The notes under the pieces: generated by a model | The model's input: the letters and a program-made list of their open reading frames with translations, nothing else | Told to the model about the DNA's origin: nothing | Database searches by the model: none | Virus genome (UHGV): UHGV-0193172 | Reading direction: 5' to 3' (one strand) | Length of the DNA: 10,937 nt | Source of the DNA: a virus | Program-made: the position numbers and the translations under genes | In this document: in pieces, positions 1 to 10,937 of the stretch | How the letters are laid out: each line of letters opens with the position of its first letter | Numbering within the stretch: the stretch's first letter is position 1

Positions 1-1
1 G

Positions 2-154
2 AAAATCTTCTGAACGACGGAAAATAAGACCGAAGGCATCATTGAAAATTCGCAGCGCATTCACCGTGCCAATTTTCAGCTCTCCGGTCATTTTATCGCC
101 GGAACGCTGAACGGCGTTACCAGCCTTGTTTACTGTTTCCTGCAAACCGAGGTT
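2..154 (-). CDS. Partial tail-fibre variable (C-terminal) exon, silent copy inside the invertible segment; 5' end at the crossover site, 3' end cut by the window start
   Basis: Minus-strand frame is open from 154 to the window edge (NLGLQETVNKAGNAVQRSGDKMTGELKIGTVNALRIFNDAFGLIFRRSEDF...). It begins immediately inside the gix-like site, with a TAA (155-157, minus) in the outer half-site, as expected for the non-expressed orientation of a Mu-G/P2-type invertible tail-fibre segment. Not in the ORF track because it is truncated. Confidence 0.45.
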
Positions 155-162
155 TTAGATAA
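137..162. other. DNA-invertase crossover site (gix/hix/pix-like 26-bp imperfect dyad)
   Basis: TTCCTGCAAACCGAGGTTTTAGATAA matches my recollection of the Gin gix site (TTCCTGTAAACCGAGGTTTTGGATAA) at 24 of 26 positions; it lies about 55 bp upstream of the invertase start, the usual position of the invertase-proximal site. Confidence 0.7.
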
Positions 163-216
163 TGGCCGTTTCCGGCCTGCATGGCATGATTTGCGCTTTT
201 GGACGGGAGATTCAGT

Positions 217-816
217 GTGCTGATTGGTTATGTAAGGGTATCAACAAATGACCAGAATACAGACCTGCAACGAAACGCTCTTGTTTGCGCAGGATGTGAA
301 CAAATATTTGAAGATAAATTAAGCGGGACAAAGACAGACCGACCGGGATTAAAACGCGCTTTAAAGCGGCTTCAAAAAGGTGACACGCTGGTTGTCTGGA
401 AACTGGATCGCCTCGGGCGAAGCATGAAACATCTGATTTCTCTCGTCGGGGAACTACGGGAGCGAGGGATTAATTTTCGCAGTCTGACCGACAGCATAGA
501 TACATCTTCTCCAATGGGGCGTTTTTTCTTCCACGTTATGGGTGCCCTGGCTGAAATGGAACGTGAATTAATTGTTGAACGTACACTGGCCGGACTGGCG
601 GCAGCGCGCGCACGGGGGCGCACAGGCGGACGTCGCCCGAAGCTGACAAAAGAACAGCATGAGCAAATAGCAAGGCTGATCAAAAACGGTCATGACAGGA
701 AACAACTGGCGATCATTTACGACATCGGCATATCGACGATTTATCGTTATCACCCTGTAGGCGATATACAGGCTGAAGAAACAACCAGGCAGACTCAGGA
801 AAATGAAAACCGCTAA
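217..816 (+). CDS. pin: Serine-recombinase DNA invertase, Pin/Gin/Hin/Cin family
   Basis: ORF track 199..816; the product from the GTG at 217 (read as MLIGYVRVSTNDQNTDLQRNAL...DTLVVWKLDRLGRS...SLTDSIDTSSPMGRFFFHVMGALAEMERELIVERT...) is near-identical to my recollection of E. coli Pin and closely related to Hin/Gin. GGGAGA Shine-Dalgarno 7 nt upstream of GTG 217. Start codon choice (GTG 217 vs TTG 199) is uncertain. Confidence 0.9.
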   Translation: MLIGYVRVSTNDQNTDLQRNALVCAGCEQIFEDKLSGTKTDRPGLKRALKRLQKGDTLVVWKLDRLGRSMKHLISLVGELRERGINFRSLTDSIDTSSPMGRFFFHVMGALAEMERELIVERTLAGLAAARARGRTGGRRPKLTKEQHEQIARLIKNGHDRKQLAIIYDIGISTIYRYHPVGDIQAEETTRQTQENENR

Positions 817-835
817 TCTGACCATTAGCGGTTTT
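806..835. terminator. Bidirectional hairpin terminator between convergent pin and the T-U ORF
   Basis: 12-bp stem AAAACCGCTAAT / ATTAGCGGTTTT (806-817 / 824-835) with a 6-nt loop; A/T runs on both sides; overlaps the pin stop codon (814-816) and sits 8 bp from the T-U stop (843-845). Confidence 0.5.
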
Positions 836-842
836 GCGTTAA

Positions 843-1322
843 TCAAAACAGCCCTTTAACGGAGCTGGCCGCGCTGTTAAGGGATGATGTGACCTTATCT
901 TTGAAGCCGGACAGCATATCACTGAACGATGAGGATTGCAGGCGCTCCCGCAAATCCTCATCACAGCGTTCAAGAGTCAGTGAAAATTCTATCTTTTTCG
1001 CCTTACCGTAGCGATCAAACTCGGAGCGGGTCGTATTCGTTTCAGTCAGTACATACATGCCGTAAATCTGCCCGACACCATCAATCAGAGGCCAGGGGCG
1101 TCCTGTATATGCCTGCGTGGTCAGCAGCGAAAGCGACACTTCGCCACCTGTAATTTCAGGATAAAGCACGCCAGAAAGCACGATGCGATCATCACCTGCA
1201 CCGATATACTGCCAGCTTGCTGAGCGGTTACTGACCTGCGCAATCTTCCGCTCCTGCCACTCCCCACGAACAGCAAGTGCGCGGGGCAGGTTCTTAAAGA
1301 CAATATCGCCGGGGCCAATACG
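843..1322 (-). other. gpU-like tail protein domain (P2 U family) with no start codon of its own in this frame
   Basis: C-terminal 159 aa (RIGPGDIVFKNLPRALAVRGEWQERK...LSGVLYPEITGGEVSL...WPLIDGVGQIYGMYVLTE...KIEFSLTLERCDEDL) match my recollection of P2 gpU (…LAGVLYPELTGG…WPLLDG.GMIYGMYV…). The domain begins directly after an A7 tract at the junction (1323-1329). Confidence 0.6.
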
Positions 1323-3737
1323 TTTTTTTGTCTCATCAACCAGCTTACCTGTGTTATCAGCAATTTTGCTGAGTCTGCGTAGCGTGCCGGTATTGCTGTC
1401 TGTGAGCGGTTTGTTGTCTTTGGGTTTATCGCCTCCGGTGCCATTGCCATTTTCCGCAGACTTCGGCGGATTGATTTTCGCAATGTCTCCCTGAAACAGA
1501 GCAACCTTGTCCTGAAGAATGGCCGCACGCTGTGCGTCTTCGATTTTCTTTCTCGCCCTTTCCGCTTCATCCGGAAGCACACCGAGTTTTTCAAGTATCC
1601 ACGCCAGCGTATCCAGCAACATTTTTGCAGGCGTCAGAACAAGCTGTAGCGCGCCACCAAGAACGTTACCGAATATCTCGCCAGCACTGGTACATTTATC
1701 CAGCGTTTCCTTGCTGGACTCCATCGGTGACAGCAGCGATTTAAACCAGTTAAACACCTGGCTGATCCCGCTTCCGATTGCGTCAAAAACAGGACCAAAC
1801 CGTTCAAAGGTTTCGCGCAACGGGGTCAGCCTTTCCATAATCCCGCTGAACACCCCGGCAAAAAATGCCCTGATGGGATCCCAGTATTTCCAGATAAGAA
1901 CGGCAGCTCCGGCAAGCGCAGCCACGATAAGACCAACCGGACTGAACAACGCCCCGATAGCGCCTCCCAGTAAAGAAACGGAACCCGTCACCATTCCCCA
2001 TAGTGCTGGCAGAACCCTGACAGCATTCATTGATCCGGTCAGGAGGGAAAAACCAAGACGCAGTTTTGCCAGCGGGCCAGCAAGCACACCAATAGCCAGC
2101 GACAACGAGCCAACCGTTGCAGTCATTGCCAGCAGTGCACCGCCTGCAATCAGTAGCTGGCGCGTCAGTGCGGGATGGGCCTGCGCCAGCGCCGTCACCT
2201 TTGATACCACACGCGTGAGCCACTGCGTGACAGAACGCAGCGGACCATCAATCAGATCTGCAATGCGGATGCGCAACCCTTCCCATGCACTGCTGAGTGA
2301 TTTCAAATCGCCGTCAAGGTTGTTGGCCATAACCTTTGCCGTGCGTTCAGCCTCACCGCGCGCGCCTTCAAGTTCTTTTCTCAGTTTGGGTAAGGAGCCG
2401 TCACCTGCCGCATCAACGAGGGCCATAAATGATGTGAAAGCCTCTTCTCCGGCAATGTCCTTAAAGAACGATACCCGGTCAACTTCCCCGTATTTGCGGG
2501 TAGCTTTATAAAGGTCAGCCAGCACATCCTCCATCGGGCGCATTTTGCCCCCGGCATCCGAGACAGACACGCCAAGCTCTTTCAGCGCCTCTGCTGCCGC
2601 CTTTGGCGGTGATGCCAGACGAGCCAGGCTGGCACGCATTGCCGTACCAGCATCACTCCCCCTGATACCCATATTCGCCAGCACGCCCGCCATCGCTGCG
2701 GCCTGCTCCAGCGATATTCCCAGCTTACCCGCCACCGGACCTGCATATTTCATGGTTTCACCCAGTGCGCGAAGGTCAGTGTTGGTACGGGTAAACGCTG
2801 CGGTGAGTGTGTCGCCGACCCGGTCCATCTGGTCAGCAGAAAGACCGAACTGCGTCAGAATATTTGAGCCAATATCCGCCGTCTCACCGAGGTCCATACC
2901 GCCAGCCGTTGCCATGCTCAGTACGCCAGGGAGCGCAGCCTGAATGGCCTGTGGTGTGAAGCCAGCCATTGCAAGAAATGCCTGCCCACTGGCGGCATCG
3001 CCTGCGGTGAACTGCGTTTCAGAGCCAAGTTTTAACGCCTGCTCACGCAGCGCCTTAAACTGCGGGCTGTTTTTGTCGATTCGCGTCAGTGCCTGAACGC
3101 GGGACATCTCTTTCCCGAACCCGATCGCAGGCTGCAAAAAACGCCCGGCAGCATAGCCGCCCGCCGCTGCCGCACCAATTGCCAGCGCACCACCTGTTTT
3201 CAGTTTTCCCGCTGTTTCCTGCGCGCGCGAATACCGCTCACGCGCCTGCGTTACACGCGCAAGCGCCTGCCGTTCGCGTTCAAGCTGGTTGTTGTACTGT
3301 TCGGTGCGTCTGATGGCCTGCTGGATGGTGTTATCGCTGCCTGTCAGGGAAATGCCGTGGCGTTTCAGCTCTCCGCCAATCTCCCGCATTTTCTGAATTT
3401 CCCGTGTGCGCGATTCATTCAGGCGTTCAAGCCGGGTGCTTAACTGCTGCATCAGCTTTTGTTGTTTTTCGCTGAGCACTGTACCCGTGCGTTGTAACTG
3501 ATTAAGGGCGTTAAGCTGGCGTCGTGCTTTCACGATACCCGCATCCGCTTTACTGACAGCGTCGCGGGCGCGCTCAAATGAACGCGCCTGACGCTCGAGA
3601 TTTTTGATCGCCCCCTGCGTTCGCTGGATGGAGTCACCAAACTGCCCCATCAGGCGGCGGGCGTTTTCGGCAGGCCGGGTCAGCCTGTCAACGGCGCTGA
3701 AAGCGACCCGGATATCAAGAGTCTTCATTGTCTGCAT
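843..3737 (-). CDS. Phage tail tape-measure protein (P2 gpT-like) continuing in frame into a gpU-like tail domain (T-U fusion ORF)
   Basis: ORF track 843..3764, 973 aa. Long helical, Ala/Gly-rich protein with hydrophobic glycine-zipper-like stretches typical of tape-measure proteins; it lies immediately downstream of the E/E' chaperone pair and its start overlaps the E' end. Start is probably ATG 3737 or 3728 (GTG 3764 also possible). The last ~159 aa resemble gpU (see next feature). Confidence 0.8.
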   Translation of the reverse strand: MQTMKTLDIRVAFSAVDRLTRPAENARRLMGQFGDSIQRTQGAIKNLERQARSFERARDAVSKADAGIVKARRQLNALNQLQRTGTVLSEKQQKLMQQLSTRLERLNESRTREIQKMREIGGELKRHGISLTGSDNTIQQAIRRTEQYNNQLERERQALARVTQARERYSRAQETAGKLKTGGALAIGAAAAGGYAAGRFLQPAIGFGKEMSRVQALTRIDKNSPQFKALREQALKLGSETQFTAGDAASGQAFLAMAGFTPQAIQAALPGVLSMATAGGMDLGETADIGSNILTQFGLSADQMDRVGDTLTAAFTRTNTDLRALGETMKYAGPVAGKLGISLEQAAAMAGVLANMGIRGSDAGTAMRASLARLASPPKAAAEALKELGVSVSDAGGKMRPMEDVLADLYKATRKYGEVDRVSFFKDIAGEEAFTSFMALVDAAGDGSLPKLRKELEGARGEAERTAKVMANNLDGDLKSLSSAWEGLRIRIADLIDGPLRSVTQWLTRVVSKVTALAQAHPALTRQLLIAGGALLAMTATVGSLSLAIGVLAGPLAKLRLGFSLLTGSMNAVRVLPALWGMVTGSVSLLGGAIGALFSPVGLIVAALAGAAVLIWKYWDPIRAFFAGVFSGIMERLTPLRETFERFGPVFDAIGSGISQVFNWFKSLLSPMESSKETLDKCTSAGEIFGNVLGGALQLVLTPAKMLLDTLAWILEKLGVLPDEAERARKKIEDAQRAAILQDKVALFQGDIAKINPPKSAENGNGTGGDKPKDNKPLTDSNTGTLRRLSKIADNTGKLVDETKKRIGPGDIVFKNLPRALAVRGEWQERKIAQVSNRSASWQYIGAGDDRIVLSGVLYPEITGGEVSLSLLTTQAYTGRPWPLIDGVGQIYGMYVLTETNTTRSEFDRYGKAKKIEFSLTLERCDEDLRERLQSSSFSDMLSGFKDKVTSSLNSAASSVKGLF

Positions 3738-4244
3738 TCCCGCTGCGAAGTGCCGCCCGCTCACGCCAGCTAACCACTTCGCCGGGCGTCATCATGAAGA
3801 TTTCGGCGGGCGACCAGTTAAAAATAACGGCAATATCTGCCACAAAGTCTTCTATGTGCTCAAAGCACACAACCGTGATCAGGCTTCCGTCGCCTGTTCG
3901 TTCTTCCCGCCAGAGTCCGCACCGCTCAAAAAATTTACGGCAACCACACATAACTGAATAAAGTCACGGGATGCCATTTTTTTGATCGTCACTTCATCCA
4001 GTCGCGGTGATGTCACGCGTGACAGCAGCGTAAACATGGATTCCGCTTTCAGATTCAGCACATCAGACAGCGACAAATCTCGCAGAGATCCAGCCTGCTC
4101 AATAGCCCCGGTGATCTCCACATACGTGATTTTTTCGCCGCCTCGCTCAATTGGTTGGGTAAGTTTTACGCCACGCTCACTGGTTTCTTTCACAGTGTCA
4201 GCAACTACCGTGTTTTCGGTATCGATGTTTTTCGTCTCTTTCAT
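3715..4244 (-). CDS. E+E' -1 programmed-frameshift tail chaperone product (shift at 3927-3933, about 176 aa)
   Basis: Minus-strand T_TTT_TTG (plus-strand CAAAAAA, 3927-3933) is in the X_XXY_YYZ register of the E frame (codons AAT TTT TTG). The -1 frame is open from there to the TGA at 3715-3717 (the track's 3715..3951 ORF), ending inside the start of T. This is the conserved arrangement in P2 E/E' and lambda G/GT. Confidence 0.65.
3879..4244 (-). CDS. Tail assembly chaperone gpE-like (upstream product of the E/E' pair)
   Basis: ORF track 121 aa; AAAGGAG Shine-Dalgarno 7 nt upstream of ATG 4244; lies between the tail tube and tape-measure genes and contains an in-register T_TTT_TTG slippery heptamer near its 3' end. 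Confidence 0.75.
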   Translation of the reverse strand: MKETKNIDTENTVVADTVKETSERGVKLTQPIERGGEKITYVEITGAIEQAGSLRDLSLSDVLNLKAESMFTLLSRVTSPRLDEVTIKKMASRDFIQLCVVAVNFLSGADSGGKNEQATEA

Positions 4245-4298
4245 CAGGAAACTCCTTTCAGTCAGAGGCGACGCACTGCGCCGCCTGCATATTACTTA

Positions 4299-4811
4299 TC
4301 AGCCAAGCCCAAGCGCGGAACGGATGCGATCGGGCACAATGTCCTTGCCGTCCTTCCGGTAAATGAAGTTCAGCAGGTCAATCTCCCACAGCGGGCGATC
4401 GTTAACGCTCAGCTTGTAGTAGGTGTTTTTAATGGCGTAAGAGTGTGATGTGGCTTCGCCCTGTTTGGCTTCCCCCATATCAATTTCCGTCACACGTCCG
4501 CGCATTTCGACTTCATACAGGTCGCTTTCTGCATCGGTGTAGTATTCACCCGCAAAACGCAGCAGCGTGCCGTCAATCGTGCCGCCATACTTAAGGAACA
4601 GCTCACGAACTGCGCCCCCCATGACAAAGCTCGCATCAAGCGCGGAGTCGTCCAGACCGAGATCAATACTTACCGCACCCATCATGCCACCACCCCGGTA
4701 GCTGTCGGTTTTGCGCGTCAGCTTAGGCAGAGTGACGGACGTCACCTTACCCACTTCGTTTTCACCATCCACAAACAGCGTAAAAAAGCGAAGATGTTTT
4801 GGCACAGCCAT
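4299..4811 (-). CDS. Contractile tail tube protein (P2 gpFII-like)
   Basis: 170 aa, MAVPKHLRFFTLFVDGE...LPKLTRKTDSYRGGGMMGAVSIDLGLDD...YYKLSV...EIDLLNF resembles P2 FII; GGGAGGTG Shine-Dalgarno upstream; start overlaps the FI stop (TGATG at 4809-4813). Confidence 0.85.
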   Translation of the reverse strand: MAVPKHLRFFTLFVDGENEVGKVTSVTLPKLTRKTDSYRGGGMMGAVSIDLGLDDSALDASFVMGGAVRELFLKYGGTIDGTLLRFAGEYYTDAESDLYEVEMRGRVTEIDMGEAKQGEATSHSYAIKNTYYKLSVNDRPLWEIDLLNFIYRKDGKDIVPDRIRSALGLG

Positions 4812-5995
4812 CAGGCACCTCCCAGCACCGAAAATGCGGGTTCAAAGTATTCATCAGTAAACGTCTGGTAAAGCTCCATATCTTCCAGCGGGGGAACAGG
4901 CGTATATTTGTAGCGAATACGCACACGCCCCTGACGTAAATCCGTGGTGCTGTTATCCACCACGTCATACCAGCACTCCGCGCCAATCAGTTTCCCGGCA
5001 GTAACCAGTGAATCCAGTTTTGCCCTGATGGCACTGATAACATCCTTCACGTTCGCAGGCGTCAGTGGACTGTCGATGGTTTCAAACTGCGCTTCCGCAA
5101 TTGAATCAGCCAACACCTGTGCGGTTCGGGTATACACCTCAAAGATGTAGGCGTTCGTTTCCGGTGTGCGGTTGCCCCAGAAGCGGAACCCGTTGCGACG
5201 AATAATGGTCGTGATTTCTTTGTTGTTGAGGCTGTTGGCATCGCTGTCTTCGGCCTGCAACGACCAGAACACATGCCTCGACATCCCCAGCACATTTTTA
5301 ACCGGAACGTTGGACAGTGATTTGTGCCAGCCCTGCTCATGGTCAATGTACGCACGAAGGCCGCACGCATAGGCAGGCGCGGGGAACGTTTCGTTTTTGC
5401 CACTTTTCGGGTTGTAGGCGATGAAGTCCGGCCATAAGAGCATCACCTCACGTTCGTTGAATTTCTGGCGATAGGTAATCGCCTCAGCCATCGTGTTACA
5501 GCCGTGACATGAGGCATACACAAACGCGCGCAGTTTACCTGCAATCACGCACAGGGATTTTGTTACAGCCTCCGTGTCCAGCTCCGGCGCGGCCAGAATA
5601 CGCGGACGGTATCCGATGCTTTCATCCTGCTCTGCAACAAGCAGCGCATACATCCCCGTATAGCTGCCGTCATCCTCAGAACCACCGATAACCAGTTGAT
5701 CCTGCGTCTTTCCGTCTTCTTCTTTGTGTTCAGCCACGCGAACGACGATCACCTTTGTGCTCACCTGGTCTGAGATGGCCTTAAGCGCACGATAAAGCGT
5801 CCCCGTTGTTCCGCATTTTCCCAGCACGTCATTGACGCGGGTCAGCAGTGTGGGCTTGTTCAGCGGGAACAGCTTCGCGTCCGCATCATCCGCCGTTGCC
5901 ACGATACCGATAACGCTGGAATCAACATCGTTAATCGCTGTTACCAGGTCGGTATTTTCCGTAACACGGGCACCATGAAAACGAGTTTCACTCAT
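4811..5995 (-). CDS. Contractile tail sheath protein (P2 gpFI-like)
   Basis: 394 aa, size and sequence character of P2 FI sheath; AAGGGG Shine-Dalgarno before ATG 5995; immediately upstream of the tube gene with a 1-nt stop/start overlap. Confidence 0.85.
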   Translation of the reverse strand: MSETRFHGARVTENTDLVTAINDVDSSVIGIVATADDADAKLFPLNKPTLLTRVNDVLGKCGTTGTLYRALKAISDQVSTKVIVVRVAEHKEEDGKTQDQLVIGGSEDDGSYTGMYALLVAEQDESIGYRPRILAAPELDTEAVTKSLCVIAGKLRAFVYASCHGCNTMAEAITYRQKFNEREVMLLWPDFIAYNPKSGKNETFPAPAYACGLRAYIDHEQGWHKSLSNVPVKNVLGMSRHVFWSLQAEDSDANSLNNKEITTIIRRNGFRFWGNRTPETNAYIFEVYTRTAQVLADSIAEAQFETIDSPLTPANVKDVISAIRAKLDSLVTAGKLIGAECWYDVVDNSTTDLRQGRVRIRYKYTPVPPLEDMELYQTFTDEYFEPAFSVLGGA

Positions 5996-6152
5996 AGCTT
6001 CAGCCCCTTGTATCCGTTAAATGATTCAGCAACAATCATCACCCACCACGCGCGTAATCTCACCCCTGCGCTATTCTCCCGCCACGGCGACAACAAAAAG
6101 CAGTAACCCCCTCCGCACGCACATGCGACCATGCCGCACAGGGAGGGAACAG

Positions 6153-7262
6153 ATGACCGACACCACCATGCAATTGCTCAGTCAGGGCACAGCCCCCGTG
6201 AAAATGCCGGATTTTGATATTCTCGCGGAGGGTAAAACGCTGTCAGGCGTGGCAGAGCGCCTGATGAGCCTGTCACTGACCGACAACCGGGGATTTGAGG
6301 CGGACCAGCTCACCATCACGCTGGATGATGCGGATGGTCAGTTGCAGCTACCGCCACGGGGCGCGCGCCTGACGGTTCTCATTGGCTGGAAAGGAGAACC
6401 GCTGACAGAAAAAGGCACTTACATTGTTGATGAAATCGCTCACGAAGGACCGCCGGACAGGCTGACTGTTTCAGCCAGAAGCGCAGATTTTCGGGATGAA
6501 TTTAACGTTAAACGTGAGGTGTCCTGGCATGATGTGACCGTTGAGCGTGTGGTATCCGCCATCGCTCATCGGTATGGTCTGAAACCGCAAATCAGCGAAA
6601 TGCTGATGGATATCGAAATCGACCACGCCGACCAGACCGAAGAAAGCGACATGTCCTTCCTTACGCGCATGGCGGAAATGCTGGGCGCAATCACCACGGT
6701 AAAAAGCGGCAATCTGTTATTCATCATGCCAGGTGGTGGCGTGAACGCGCAGGGCCAGCCGTTGCCCTCGTTCGCCATTACACGCAGCAGCGGCGATCGC
6801 CATCAGTTCCGCATTGCTGACCGCGAGGCGTATACGGGGGTACGCGCTTACTGGCTTGATCTTAATTACGGGAAAAAGAAAAAAGTCAGCGTGAAACGCC
6901 GCAAACCGCCAAAACCCAAAAAGGAGAAAAGCAGCAGCCGTGAAGGTGATTATATGGAAGGCGCGGAAGGCAATGTGTTTGTGTTACGCAAGACTTATCA
7001 GAACGAGCAGGCAGCAAGACGCGCAGCGGCGGCAAAGTGGCAGCAGCTACAACGCGGAGCTGCATCATTCTCCATCACGCTGGCGCGTGGACGTGCGGAA
7101 CTCTACCCCGAAATGCATGGCACGGTGACAGGCTTCAAAAGTGACATCGACAATCAGGACTGGATTATTGCAAAAGCCGAGCACACCATTGATAACAGCG
7201 GCTTTACCACGCAGCTTGAGCTTGAAGCAAAAATCCCGGAATGGATAGCAGAAACAGAGTGA
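6153..7262 (+). CDS. Phage late control gene D protein (P2 gpD-like tail/baseplate hub protein)
   Basis: ORF track 6021..7262; the part from MTDTTMQLLSQGTAPVKMPDFDIL... with SLTDNRGFEADQL, RSADFRDEF, SWHD, a lysine-rich KKKKVSVKRRKPPKPKKEK stretch and GFTTQLELE matches my recollection of the gpD family. Preferred start is ATG 6153 with a GGGAGGG Shine-Dalgarno 5 nt upstream; ATG 6021 lacks one and would put the promoter inside FI. Confidence 0.85.
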   Translation: MTDTTMQLLSQGTAPVKMPDFDILAEGKTLSGVAERLMSLSLTDNRGFEADQLTITLDDADGQLQLPPRGARLTVLIGWKGEPLTEKGTYIVDEIAHEGPPDRLTVSARSADFRDEFNVKREVSWHDVTVERVVSAIAHRYGLKPQISEMLMDIEIDHADQTEESDMSFLTRMAEMLGAITTVKSGNLLFIMPGGGVNAQGQPLPSFAITRSSGDRHQFRIADREAYTGVRAYWLDLNYGKKKKVSVKRRKPPKPKKEKSSSREGDYMEGAEGNVFVLRKTYQNEQAARRAAAAKWQQLQRGAASFSITLARGRAELYPEMHGTVTGFKSDIDNQDWIIAKAEHTIDNSGFTTQLELEAKIPEWIAETE

Positions 7263-7382: not shown

Positions 7383-8405
7383 TTAATACGCATTTAATTT
7401 AAATTTGTATTTGCTTTCTATGTAATGGATAAATTCAATTATGCTTTTTTCTATCGCGTCTAATATATGAATATATCCATCCCGATTTAAGGTCCTATCC
7501 AACTCAAAATGATGAACTATCCCATGTCTATATTGTATGATTTCAGAAATTCGATTCTCAAGGTAATCAACTGATTTTCCAATTCTTTTTTTCTTATAAA
7601 GAATCGCTCTCACATCTATATCTAGCCACTCTTTATATGCTTTGTTTAGGAGGGTTAAGTTTTGAAAAGTGTAATTTCTTGCAATAACACTTTCTATTGA
7701 AATATTTCCTTTCTCTATCTCAAGCAGAATATCAAAATCAACTTTTTGCTTATACGATGTTCTTTTTGCTATTGCGAAAGGATCGTACTTTATAAGTATT
7801 TGAAAAGCTCTAGAGAAAAAATATTCAAACATAGCAACCGCAAAAGGTACTAATCCATTATATATAACTCTACTGGGATCCATACATTGCATATCATCAA
7901 AGTATTCGGATAAGCCGCCATCTTCCGGCAGGTTTAATTTAATAGAAGGTTCAGGTAAGGCATGTTTAACAGCGGAAATCTCATGATGAACATGATTAAA
8001 TATTGAAGAAATGCCACGACTGATCGGACTACTAGAATCCTCCCATAGAGGAGCGTATCTATTTTTCCCATAATCACCTATAAGTGTTCCACCAAAAAGA
8101 CTCCTTGCGCCTTTTAGAACATCATTAAGCATTTTTACATCATGCCAACTAGCGCTAGATAAATTACGCACATGCAATGCCCATTTATTACCAGATATGT
8201 GTAGTTCGTCATTTGAAACAGGATATATATCAGCCGAAACTCCATCTGTAGATTTGAAGTCCGTATCATCAAACCAAGAGTAATTTAACGTTCCTTGGGG
8301 CCATTCCCACAAATGTTTACACCTTTTAAAACCTAAATTTTCAAGATAATTTTTAAGTTCGTTTCTAGTTGCTTTTTTAGGGTACAGCGTTATATCTCTT
8401 CCCAT
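7383..8405 (-). CDS. Hypothetical 340-aa protein in an AT-rich cargo island; candidate HEPN-like (R-x4-H) abortive-infection/defence protein
   Basis: ORF track 340 aa; ATG 8405 with AGGTGA-like Shine-Dalgarno upstream. Region about 7263-8560 is visibly AT-rich (roughly one-third G+C by eye) against >50% in the flanking phage genes. Predicted-helical C-terminal half carries RHGIVH (aa 293-298). No family recognised by eye. Confidence 0.6.
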   Translation of the reverse strand: MGRDITLYPKKATRNELKNYLENLGFKRCKHLWEWPQGTLNYSWFDDTDFKSTDGVSADIYPVSNDELHISGNKWALHVRNLSSASWHDVKMLNDVLKGARSLFGGTLIGDYGKNRYAPLWEDSSSPISRGISSIFNHVHHEISAVKHALPEPSIKLNLPEDGGLSEYFDDMQCMDPSRVIYNGLVPFAVAMFEYFFSRAFQILIKYDPFAIAKRTSYKQKVDFDILLEIEKGNISIESVIARNYTFQNLTLLNKAYKEWLDIDVRAILYKKKRIGKSVDYLENRISEIIQYRHGIVHHFELDRTLNRDGYIHILDAIEKSIIEFIHYIESKYKFKLNAY

Positions 8406-8596: not shown

Positions 8597-8857
8597 ATGT
8601 TCCGTTGTCCGCTTTGTGGCGCATCTGCCCGTATCCGCACAAGTCGTCCGGAAAATGATTCAAACACCGTGCGGCAAAAGTATTACCAGTGTAACAATCT
8701 GGAATGCGGCGTATGCTTCTCAACACTGGAAGCTTTCCATAAATTCACATCGAAACAAGCCTCCGGCGTTCACTCTTCAGAAGGTATCCCGTGGCATGAG
8801 CTGCCAGCTTCACACAGGGGAAACAATCAGATGAGTTTGCCTTTACCTCAGAATTAA
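8597..8857 (+). CDS. ogr: Ogr/Delta-family zinc-finger late-gene transcriptional activator
   Basis: MFRCPLCGASARIRTSR...YYQCNNLECGVCF resembles my recollection of P2 Ogr (MFHCPLCQHAAHARTSR...YHQCQNVNCSATF) with the C-x2-C...C-x4-C zinc finger; it follows D as in P2. 86 aa, C-terminally longer than the P2 Ogr I recall. Confidence 0.85.
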   Translation: MFRCPLCGASARIRTSRPENDSNTVRQKYYQCNNLECGVCFSTLEAFHKFTSKQASGVHSSEGIPWHELPASHRGNNQMSLPLPQN

Positions 8858-9047: not shown

Positions 9048-9188
9048 ATGTCGCAAAAATCGCTTACGGCCATCACGTTCTGCGTGACGGTAATCCTCAT
9101 CATCTGGATGTTACACGGTTCGCTGTGCGAAATACGGATGAGCTTCTGGGGAGCGGAGTTTGCGGCGTTCTTACAGTGTAAGCAGTAA
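9048..9188 (+). CDS. Hok/Gef-family type I toxin (HokA-like small membrane peptide, 46 aa)
   Basis: Not in the ORF track (too short). ATG 9048 with AAGGAG Shine-Dalgarno 8 nt upstream. MSQKSLTAITFCVTVILIIWMLHGSLCEIRMSFWGAEFAAFLQCKQ has the N-terminal TM helix plus the SLCE(I/L)R and E(V/L/F)AAF(L/M) signature of Hok/Gef peptides (compare Hok ...[21 protein letters not shown] and HokA ...SLCELHIKQESYELAAFLACK, from memory). Confidence 0.7.
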   Translation: MSQKSLTAITFCVTVILIIWMLHGSLCEIRMSFWGAEFAAFLQCKQ

Positions 9189-9323: not shown

Positions 9324-9620
9324 ATGAGTGAAATGGTATTTTGTCGCGGATGCGGCAAGGAAATACATAAAGATGCCACATCCTGCCCCAATTGTGGAGC
9401 ACCTCAAAGAACAGCAAGTTCAAAAAGCAGAATGACAGCCGCACTACTGGCTTTCTTTTTAGGTGGTCTTGGTGCACACAAATTTTATTTAGGTAAAGTG
9501 GGGCAAGGATTCCTTTACCTTATTTTTTGCTGGACATTCATTCCGGCAATCGTGGCATTTATTGAGTTTTTTATCTATCTATGCACCTCTGATGAAGATT
9601 TCGCCCGCAAATATGGCTGA
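9324..9620 (+). CDS. Small membrane protein with N-terminal zinc ribbon (CxxC...CxxC) and C-terminal TM2-like domain
   Basis: ORF track 98 aa; AAGGAA Shine-Dalgarno upstream; CRGCGKEIHKDATSCPNCG zinc-ribbon motif followed by two hydrophobic helices (LLAFFLGGLGAHKFYLGK...LYLIFCWTFIPAIVAFIEFFIYL). Confidence 0.6.
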   Translation: MSEMVFCRGCGKEIHKDATSCPNCGAPQRTASSKSRMTAALLAFFLGGLGAHKFYLGKVGQGFLYLIFCWTFIPAIVAFIEFFIYLCTSDEDFARKYG

Positions 9621-9941: not shown

Positions 9942-10937
9942 ATGATACAACCTATTTCCGGCCCTCCTCCTGGGCAACCACCAGGTCAGGGAGATAATCT
10001 GCCGTCTGGCACGGGCAATCAGCCTTTATCCAGTCAGCAACGTACTTCGCTGGAAAGCTTAATGACGAAAGTGACCTCACTGACGCAACAGCAAAGAGCA
10101 GAACTGTGGGCGGGTATCAGGCACGATATTGGTCTGTCGGGAGATTCACCGCTGCTTTCGCGTCACTTCCCTGCCGCTGAGCATAATCTGGCGCAACGTC
10201 TGCTGGCCGCGCAAAAAAGCCATTCTGCCCGCCAGCTTTTAGCGCAATTAGGGGAGTATTTACGTCTGGGGAATAATCGTCAGGCGGTCACGGATTATAT
10301 CCGTCATAACTTTGGTCAGACGCCGCTGAATCAGCTCTCACCGGAGCAATTAAAAACCATTCTCACCCTGTTGCAGGAAGGGAAGATGGTTATTCCGCAA
10401 CCACAGCAGCGCGAGGCGACCGACCGTCCTTTATTACCGGCGGAGCACAATGCGCTAAAACAGCTGGTGACCAAACTTGCGGCGGCAACGGGGGAACCCA
10501 GCAAACAGATCTGGCAATCGATGCTGGAACTTTCCGGGGTGAAAGATGGCGAGTTAATTCCAGCGAAACTGTTTAACCATCTGGTGACCTGGCTACAGGC
10601 GCGTCAGACGCTAAGCCAGCAAAATACGCCGACGCTGGAATCACTACAGATGACGCTAAAACAACCTTTAGATGCCAGTGAACTGGCGGCGTTATCGGCA
10701 TATATCCAGCAAAAATATGGTCTTTCTGCGCAATCATCGCTTTCTTCTGCCCAGGCCGAGGATATTCTTAATCAGCTTTATCAACGGCGGGTTAAAGGGA
10801 TTGATCCGCGTGTTATGCAACCGCTGCTTAATCCTTTTCCACCGATGATGGACACGTTGCAAAATATGGCAACGCGTCCCGCGCTGTGGATACTGTTAGT
10901 CGCGATTATCCTGATGCTGGTCTGGCTGGTTCGTTAA
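9942..10937 (+). CDS. flk: Flk (flagellar regulator; C-terminally membrane-anchored protein)
   Basis: ORF track 331 aa; AAGGA Shine-Dalgarno before ATG 9942; Pro/Gln-rich N-terminus and a single C-terminal hydrophobic anchor (ALWILLVAIILMLVWLVR), matching my recollection of enterobacterial Flk length and architecture. Stop codon is the last three bases of the window. Confidence 0.65.
   Translation: MIQPISGPPPGQPPGQGDNLPSGTGNQPLSSQQRTSLESLMTKVTSLTQQQRAELWAGIRHDIGLSGDSPLLSRHFPAAEHNLAQRLLAAQKSHSARQLLAQLGEYLRLGNNRQAVTDYIRHNFGQTPLNQLSPEQLKTILTLLQEGKMVIPQPQQREATDRPLLPAEHNALKQLVTKLAAATGEPSKQIWQSMLELSGVKDGELIPAKLFNHLVTWLQARQTLSQQNTPTLESLQMTLKQPLDASELAALSAYIQQKYGLSAQSSLSSAQAEDILNQLYQRRVKGIDPRVMQPLLNPFPPMMDTLQNMATRPALWILLVAIILMLVWLVR

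Follow-up and report, generated by a model that had tools for sequence, protein, structure and literature searches.

The window analyzed here, a stretch of 10,937 nucleotides from the virus genome UHGV-0193172, comes from a P2-like prophage of E. coli (P88/Xuanwuvirus type), of which it represents the right part, and adjoins flk. Its first 816 nucleotides contain the following features, with the evidence for each in parentheses:

1..149, minus strand: 5' end of exon B, which is silent and encodes an alternative C-terminus of the tail fibre; right end of an invertible segment (open frame, PHROG)
137..162, plus strand: gix-type crossover site of 26 bp, the right site (position weight matrix, Mu gix match, inversion breakpoints), with inner half-site TTCCTGCAAACC, outer half-site TTATCTAAAACC (minus-strand reading) and central dinucleotide GA at 149-150
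163..216, plus strand: leader of 54 nt, from the site to the start codon of the invertase (sequence, similarity to the Mu spacer)
217..816, plus strand: gene for a Gin-type serine DNA invertase of 199 aa (Pfam, PDB and PHROG matches)
238..301, no strand assigned: predicted Fis-dependent recombinational enhancer within the invertase gene (homology to hin, wobble conservation)
806..835, no strand assigned: hairpin with a 12-bp stem over the invertase stop codon (terminator scan and RNA fold)

The crossover site reads TTCCTGCAAACCGAGGTTTTAGATAA on the plus strand and differs at two of 26 positions from gixL and gixR of phage Mu, which both read TTCCTGTAAACCGAGGTTTTGGATAA at the ends of the G segment in the Mu reference genome. 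The count of 24 of 26 positions that the first-pass annotation had given for the agreement of this site with the Gin/Hin/Pin consensus is therefore correct. In a self-match scan of the window allowing up to three mismatches, 137-162 was the sole copy, with an expectation of zero from 200 shuffles, and a half-site weight matrix gave it a score of 29.7, as compared to 10.9 for the runner-up position and a shuffle maximum of 14.7. The outer edge of the site is also the homology breakpoint of the natural inversions described below. Read in the inverted orientation, the consensus of the site is TTATCGAATACC TC GGTTTRCAGGAA.

The invertase gene lies outside the invertible segment and extends from a GTG codon at 217 to a TAA stop codon at 814-816. 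A TTG codon at 199 was offered as an alternative start by the ORF lister, but GTG 217 was adopted because it aligns with the annotated start of Mu gin; a possible Shine-Dalgarno motif for it, GGGAG, is found at 205-209. The leader is approximately 85% identical to the spacer between gixR and gin in Mu and equal to it in length (54 nt). A scan of window 1-1000 for sigma-70 promoters returned no consensus match for the invertase, and we presume that a weak promoter overlaps the crossover site. At the other end of the gene, the hairpin at 806-835 has a calculated RNA folding energy of -16.9 kcal/mol (z = -5.3 versus shuffles) and is likely the terminator between the invertase on the plus strand and a convergent tail gene on the minus strand that ends at 843.

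The protein encoded by this gene comprises a Resolvase domain (Pfam, residues 3-135, E 1.2e-50) and an HTH_7 domain (residues 138-180, E 8e-13). Its matches among known structures are to Gin (PDB 4m6f/3uj3, E ~1e-101) and to Hin's DNA-binding domain (E 1.7e-12), while the gamma-delta/Tn3 resolvases are distant, with E values of about 1e-31 to 1e-28. The PHROG family 'DNA invertase' was matched with an E value of 5.9e-97, and in a search of NCBIfam no family-specific model exceeded its cut-off, with only other serine recombinases appearing below threshold. The nucleophile of Gin is Ser9 (PMC3575834), and the corresponding catalytic Ser9 codon is found at 241-243, the residue being part of the motif YVRVSTNDQ.

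With respect to the type of invertase, the protein shows 85% identity with Mu Gin, 78% with PinE of e14 and 70% with the invertase of a P2-like prophage from enteropathogenic E. coli (EPEC). This identity is unevenly distributed. Within residues 1-119, 118 of 119 positions are the same as in Mu Gin, the single change being K39 (an arginine in Gin), but from about residue 120 onward the identity to Gin falls to some 55-60%, and the protein ends in a polar C-terminal tail of 15 residues by which it exceeds Gin. The DNA follows the same pattern, with 97% identity to Mu gin over window 217-420 and approximately 95% identity to Mu from the crossover site to about window position 565, beyond which the sequences are diverged. 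As protein and DNA break together, near residue 120 and position 565, we read the enzyme as Gin-type with a recombinant 3' end. By this comparison it is a natural chimera, in which a Mu-type gin module consisting of crossover site, predicted enhancer and catalytic domain continues, from about codon 120, into a DNA-binding domain of different origin. We also considered whether this C-terminal domain was specifically Hin-like, but dropped the idea, as identity to Hin and to Gin is similar in this region, about 50-55%. The sites lead to the same assignment. Those of e14, termed pix, bear no resemblance to the site in the window when as many as three mismatches are allowed, and their cores are AA/TT (read at 2779-2804 and 4606-4631 of the e14 locus, L006), in contrast to GA/TC in the present case. 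With a site matching gix at 24 of 26 positions and a GA core, and pix unmatched and of AA/TT core, the switch is on sequence grounds Gin-type and not Pin-type. The initial assignment of a Pin-like invertase following the site thus holds for the invertase itself, encoded 54 nt downstream with its Resolvase and HTH_7 domains, but not for the Pin subtype, and 'Pin-type' is acceptable only as a label for the family.

Two groups of residues, K47/R48/K51 and Q151/R154/L155, are uniquely conserved in Hin and other invertases that depend on Fis and an enhancer (PMC3798978). Their counterparts here are K46/R47/K50 in the basic patch of helix B and Q150/R153/L154 in helix 1 of the DNA-binding domain; all are retained, as they are in Gin and PinE. 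In addition, Met114, the residue whose replacement by valine renders Gin independent of Fis (PMC3575834), is of the wild type. These residues suggest that the switch would depend on Fis.

An enhancer for Fis probably resides at 238-301, a stretch that differs from Mu gin in a single base. Two candidate Fis cores of 15 bp, 238-252 (GTATCAACAAATGAC) and 287-301 (GCGCAGGATGTGAAC), are separated by 49 bp from centre to centre. In the hin locus of Salmonella (L069), tracts of ATTTA and TAATG are situated between GTGTCAACAATTGAC and GTGCAAATTGTGACC within hin nucleotides 25-88; these two elements we take, in view of their G...C signature, to be the Fis cores of hin. Window 238-301 is positionally homologous to this stretch of hin that we regard as its enhancer. 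In hin, the enhancer has a pair of Fis sites spaced by 47 bp from centre to centre, with the tracts of ATTTA and TAATG between them (PMC3798978), and a work by Kahmann (1985), cited in the same paper, places a site stimulating G inversion within the invertase gene according to its title.

Conservation at the proximal core further supports this prediction. In a set of 59 distinct relatives, all from other Enterobacterales, the wobble positions 243, 246, 249 and 252 are conserved in 50 to 53, as compared to an average conservation of about 58% at the wobble positions from 255 to 285 in the same set, and the proximal core would therefore be under a constraint at the level of DNA that goes beyond coding. 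The distance from crossover site to start codon is 54 nt in 11 relatives, with further classes of 45, 64-65 and 75-76 nt. These classes step by approximately 10 bp, or one turn of the helix, which is what a need to keep site and enhancer in phase would lead one to expect. A scan with a degenerate Fis motif produced dozens of matches and was not discriminating, and they included another possible pair (262-276 with 310-324), spaced by 48 bp and located 99 bp from the crossover site. As the motif scan alone cannot decide, the pair homologous to hin, 238-252 and 287-301, was preferred. Note that its distal candidate core is richer in GC than the counterpart in hin.

To the left of the invertase, a minus-strand frame is open from 154 to 2. 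Its 51 codons (NLGLQETVNKAGNAVQRSGDKMTGELKIGTVNALRIFNDAFGLIFRRSEDF) continue beyond the left edge of the window, and the encoded fragment of 51 aa matches tail-fibre PHROGs (phrog_6859, E 6.5e-24). This is the fibre frame that had been described from the sequence as an opposite-strand frame with its beginning in the site and its continuation outside the window. An in-frame TAA codon at 157-155, in the outer half-site, immediately precedes it.

As a stand-in for the sequence left of the window we used the corresponding locus of E. coli ZY22049, here referred to as L001, which is 100% identical to window 1-1229; past 1229 the two are 99.8% identical apart from one deletion. The gene order in L001 is V, W, J, I, the fibre gene H (744 aa) and an assembly gene, followed by an opposed cassette and the invertase. 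This opposed cassette consists of a fibre-assembly gene and a 'hypothetical protein' with an annotated TTG start inside the site. In L001, exon B extends to a fibre C-terminus of 301 aa, after which comes a Caudo_TAP assembly gene of its own. Both cassettes, in opposed orientation, encode fibre domains together with a Caudo_TAP chaperone. Extending the sequence leftward in this identical genome revealed the inverted partner site, with three mismatches, at L001 6185-6210, inside gene H, with a leftward distance of 2,952 bp from the site in the window. The first-pass annotation had predicted that a partner site would lie left of the window, together with the expressed exon and the fibre's constant part, and in genomes 100% identical to its left end this is where they are located. 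The central dinucleotide GA/TC is identical in the two sites. Their four half-sites vary among themselves and with respect to Mu at position 6 or 7.

The half-site weight matrix yielded two sites in L001, with scores of 29.7 and 29.2, as compared to a next best score of 10.9 and a shuffle maximum of 14.7. A search for a third or cryptic site in L001, which also covered the distal end of the inverted tail operon, yielded nothing above chance. We considered a multiple-inversion system such as Min of p15B, a shufflon-like arrangement or the three-site locus of EPEC, and rejected it, as only two sites in L001 beat chance. With just these two scores exceeding the range of the shuffles, the system is best described as a simple two-site switch. 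All 10 of the 10 related loci checked contained two inverted sites, the same pair in each case. When L001 6198-9149 was inverted in silico, the reading frame was retained, and the resulting fibre comprised 725 aa, as compared to 744 aa in the native protein. In this inverted fibre, residues 1-425 of H lead via VIEYLGLQETVN into another C-terminus, and the junction motif YLGLQETVN spans the crossover site.

In order to look for inversion in nature, L001 5900-9400 was searched in its native and its in-silico inverted form against 5,426 complete genomes of E. coli, and full-length matches in a single piece were obtained for both orientations of the segment. The native orientation is found for example in ZY22049, 4600, E66, FDAARGOS_1059 and 12A. 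The inverted one is present at full length in E300082, and from query position 279 onward in MIN10 and E24377A. In genomes of the opposite orientation, the match spans exactly query positions 286-3263, the outer edges of both sites. The clearest pair is E300082 and FDAARGOS_1059, which harbor the same P2-like prophage with the same invertase protein. Their flanks are collinear, at 99.1% and 99.9% identity, and between them the 2,978-bp segment (1786-4763) shows an exact inversion, at 99.3% identity, that ends at the outer edges of the 26-bp sites on its two sides. The invertase of this pair is a variant of 196 aa (WP_000905050.1), as opposed to the 199-aa protein in the window. The latter, WP_000905055.1, adjoins exon B in ZY22049 and the other exon, A, in TW10590.

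Judged by this comparison between genomes, site-specific inversion occurs in the prophage lineage, and the switch in the strain of the window itself is probably active. Two further genomes were set aside as proof of inversion. ETEC1706 shows a 100% match to the inverted left junction, but the exons at the two ends of its segment are both B-like, and therefore no flip is shown. In TW10590 exon A is situated beside the invertase, yet a third exon occupies the expressed position, which indicates an exchange of cassettes rather than a clean inversion.

Taken together, we are confident that window 1-816 is the right end of a Gin-family invertible tail-fibre switch for host range in a P2-like prophage of E. 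coli. The first-pass annotation had proposed an arrangement of the type of the Mu G, P1 C and e14 P segments, and the geometry of the parts, the in-frame fusion and the occurrence of both orientations across genomes, all of them observed, bear this out. An effect of the present switch on host range is what we infer by analogy to the related phage P88, in which the exchange of C-terminal fibre residues changes the host range (PMC5285337).

In the mechanism that we propose, dimers of the invertase would bind to 137-162 and to the inverted partner approximately 2.95 kb to the left in fibre gene H, and host Fis, bound to an enhancer near the 5' end of the gene for the invertase (predicted at 238-301), would assemble the synaptic complex on supercoiled DNA. 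Ser9 would then cut the two sites within their central GA/TC, half of the tetramer would turn by 180 degrees, and the DNA would be rejoined. The 2,978-bp segment flipped in this way would contain two opposed cassettes, each with a C-terminal fibre exon and the gene of an assembly chaperone, and the constant N-terminal part of approximately 425 residues would be joined to either of two C-termini of about 300-320 aa. In the orientation found in the window, the silent exon is B, which adjoins the invertase and is preceded in frame by the TAA codon in the outer half-site.

The system as such is already known, its invertase being annotated in P88-like phages, and inversion has been demonstrated experimentally in P2-like prophages. 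A close counterpart is the G segment of Mu, which shares the order of constant fibre part, site, exon with tfa, opposed tfa' with exon', site and an invertase outside the segment, as well as the GA core, the spacing of 54 nt from site to start codon and an invertible segment of approximately 3 kb (2,978 bp here). Moreover, exon A of ZY22049 ends like S' of Mu, whose cassettes are S/U and S'/U'. The differences concern the host element, P2-like here and with genes for gpU, tape measure, gpD and ogr, as opposed to com/mom downstream in Mu, the length of the invertase (199 aa versus 193 aa in Gin), and the silent exon, which is unlike both Mu exons except for the junction NLGLQETVN and the C-terminal ~65 residues.

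The P segment of e14 in E. coli K-12 belongs to the same family and has the same architecture, with stfP/tfaP opposed to tfaE/stfE and pinE outside, but its pix sites, such as TTCTCCCAAACCAACGTTTATGAAAA, have an AA/TT core. In the P2-like prophages of EPEC E2348/69, sequencing and PCR revealed coexisting orientations of fibre segments within clonal cultures (Goldberg et al. 2014, PMC4272514). As in the window, the invertase is located beside opposed cassettes of fibre exon and tfa, but the EPEC sites are pix-like (AAACCTTGGTTTGGGAGAA), the invertase is the one of 70% identity mentioned above, and one EPEC locus contains three sites, as compared to two in L001. In EPEC the invertase is furthermore followed on the same strand by sheath, tube and tape measure, as in P2, whereas the operon in the window is convergent on the opposite strand; the entire tail operon of this lineage, from sheath to gpU, is inverted relative to P2.

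The Hin/hix system of Salmonella likewise has a 26-bp site upstream of the invertase, an enhancer in the 5' coding region (predicted in the present case) and the Fis-contact residues, and the proximal Fis core GTGTCAACAATTGAC of hin is identical to our candidate GTATCAACAAATGAC at 13 of 15 positions. Unlike the present gene, hin is inside the invertible segment, which flips a promoter and not coding exons, and in Salmonella the spacing from site to gene is about 10 bp longer. The Cin system of P1 shares family and mechanism with Gin-type switches, but the phage backbone flanking the C segment is unlike that of the window. The pair of fibre cassettes itself (~95-96% identical) is also found on plasmids of ~90-134 kb, judged to be P1-like from their size only, in a Mu-like prophage of MIN10 with com/mom downstream and in a locus near potB, in line with the known modular exchange of such cassettes. 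Fels-2, a P2-like prophage of Salmonella, encodes an invertase of this kind, Fin, and in GenBank records of P88-like phages the gene is annotated as a DNA invertase. The paper on the host range of P88 makes no mention of an invertase or of mixtures of two fibre types (PMC5285337).

The most substantial alternative reading concerns consequence rather than mechanism and is compatible with our preferred explanation. At window position 1228/1229, an in-frame deletion of 423 bp has fused the genes for the tape measure and gpU into an ORF of 961 aa with the domains PhageMin_Tail and Phage_P2_GpU. In the complete genomes that match best, this deletion is absent throughout. The prophage may thus be tail-defective; if it failed to build tails, fibre switching would be without a phage phenotype in this strain, and the switch would be intact as DNA but functionless for the phage. 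On this reading, which we consider possible although unlikely, flipping would go on as phase variation of a neutral kind, or the sole use of the invertase would be in trans, on other segments of the same family in the genome. In its favor it counts further that Gin, Cin, Pin and Hin complement one another and that an E. coli genome often contains several such segments, in up to 10 places. Against it, the deletion could be an artefact of assembly, an in-frame fusion need not be non-functional, and prophages whose tail genes are intact have an invertase, site and exon 100% identical to those in the window.

That the element is a frozen relic that no longer inverts in its lineage, be it through weak expression, the chimeric DNA-binding domain and tail or a spoiled enhancer, appears improbable to us. 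The promoter consensus not found in window 1-1000, the divergence from Gin past approximately residue 120 with the extra C-terminal tail and the variation of the four half-sites at position 6 or 7 are consistent with such a loss, but near-identical prophages of the same lineage show an exact inversion from site to site, albeit with the 196-aa variant of the invertase. The 199-aa protein itself is found beside different exons, B in ZY22049 and A in TW10590, and the catalytic and Fis-contact residues are all retained. The notion of a chance resemblance, or of a recombinase with another role such as a resolvase or a prophage integrase, is one to which we attach hardly any weight. Resolvases are also found among serine recombinases of this size, and NCBIfam provided no family-specific match, but the 26-bp site has a chance expectation of zero, Gin is 85% identical where resolvases are distant, and neither the geometry of the fibre exons nor the natural inversions fit the model of a resolvase.

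Returning to the reading as a Gin-type two-site switch, its value is mainly one of annotation and leaves the current understanding of the system unchanged. ORFs labeled 'hypothetical protein' or 'phage tail protein' that begin at an artefactual TTG codon inside a crossover site represent silent fibre exons without a start codon of their own, as exemplified by WP_001158481.1 of ZY22049, and genes annotated 'recombinase family protein' can be named Gin-type invertases. In work with P88-like phages, for example in the engineering of host range, lysates are to be expected as mixtures of two fibre types. As a speculation that we regard as improbable, the altered DNA-binding end may change the choice of sites or the dependence on Fis, and a past event catalyzed by the invertase may have inverted the tail operon. 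If this were true, the altered enzyme might for instance act in trans on segments of other prophages, and the switching of host range would then be coupled between Mu-, P1- and P2-like elements that reside in one host and share the same cassette.

Among minor observations, a cargo ORF of 340 aa was without a match in a PADLOC search. E. coli genomes often contain several segments of the present kind, at up to 10 places per genome, and draft assemblies tend to end exactly at these crossover sites.

The pair of opposed tail-fibre cassettes that makes up the invertible segment was found, at approximately 95-96% identity, in three further settings: a Mu-like prophage with com/mom in E. coli MIN10 (locus L010), a locus near potB in E66 (L008) where the invertase is truncated, and a set of plasmids of approximately 90-134 kb (matches H95-H99) that are termed P1-like from their size only. 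As the same cassette pair thus occurs in a Mu-like prophage, next to potB and on plasmids, we conclude that the invertible module circulates among unrelated phage backbones.

A variant arrangement was observed in E. coli ETEC1706 (locus L002, 5185-8186), where exons resembling exon B, the silent alternative fibre C-terminus adjoining the invertase in E. coli ZY22049, are found at both ends of the invertible segment. Their identities to the ZY22049 exon B are 89% and 94%, and the annotation marks each of the two assembly genes as carrying a frameshift. Here the switch takes a near-palindromic, probably degenerate form. In draft genomes of other Enterobacterales, contig sequence stops no more than 200 bp ahead of the invertase homologue at 19 of 76 loci, and at least nine contigs (L017, L018, L020, L021, L023, L024, L025, L047 and L080) terminate within the 26-bp crossover site itself. 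Such breaks are as expected if assemblers fail on invertible or repeated segments.

To the right of the invertase, the window holds the following features up to the chromosomal gene flk.

approximately 843-5995, minus strand: operon for sheath, tube, E/E', tape-measure and gpU (9843-15418 in the ZY22049 locus, L001)
6021-7262, plus strand: gpD-like ORF of 413 aa, matching Phage_GPD
7386-8405, minus strand: ORF of 340 aa between gene D and ogr
8597-8857, plus strand: Ogr/Delta zinc-finger gene
9048-9188, plus strand: Hok/Gef-family toxin ORF
9324-9620, plus strand: TM2/zinc-ribbon ORF
9942-10937: flk

In P2, the sheath-to-gpU operon comes after the invertase or G and on the same strand, and the same holds for a P2-like remnant in EPEC. 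In the window, however, this operon lies on the opposite strand, convergent with the invertase gene and opposed to both the fibre genes H-G and gene D. A search of the distal end of this block returned no gix-like site.

Within the part of this minus-strand region at 843-3764, an in-frame deletion of 423 bp with respect to ZY22049, its junction at 1228/1229, merges the tape-measure and gpU-like tail genes. The resulting ORF of 961 aa (846-3728, minus strand) contains both a PhageMin_Tail and a Phage_P2_GpU domain. The deletion is absent from ZY22049 and from all other top-matching complete genomes, and microhomology at the junction amounts to 2 nt only. Either a genuine prophage defect or an assembly artefact may lie behind the deletion.

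The gpD-like ORF is intact in the window; the same region of ZY22049 is annotated as a shorter, 801-bp gene of the VgrG/Pvc8 family plus a partial pseudogene. For the 340-aa ORF the sole domain match, to HEPN_RiboL-PSP, is weak and below threshold, and PADLOC returned no match; the ORF may belong to a variable locus of the P2 type, as a cargo or defence gene. The Ogr/Delta, Hok/Gef and TM2/zinc-ribbon ORFs are placed between the phage late genes and flk.
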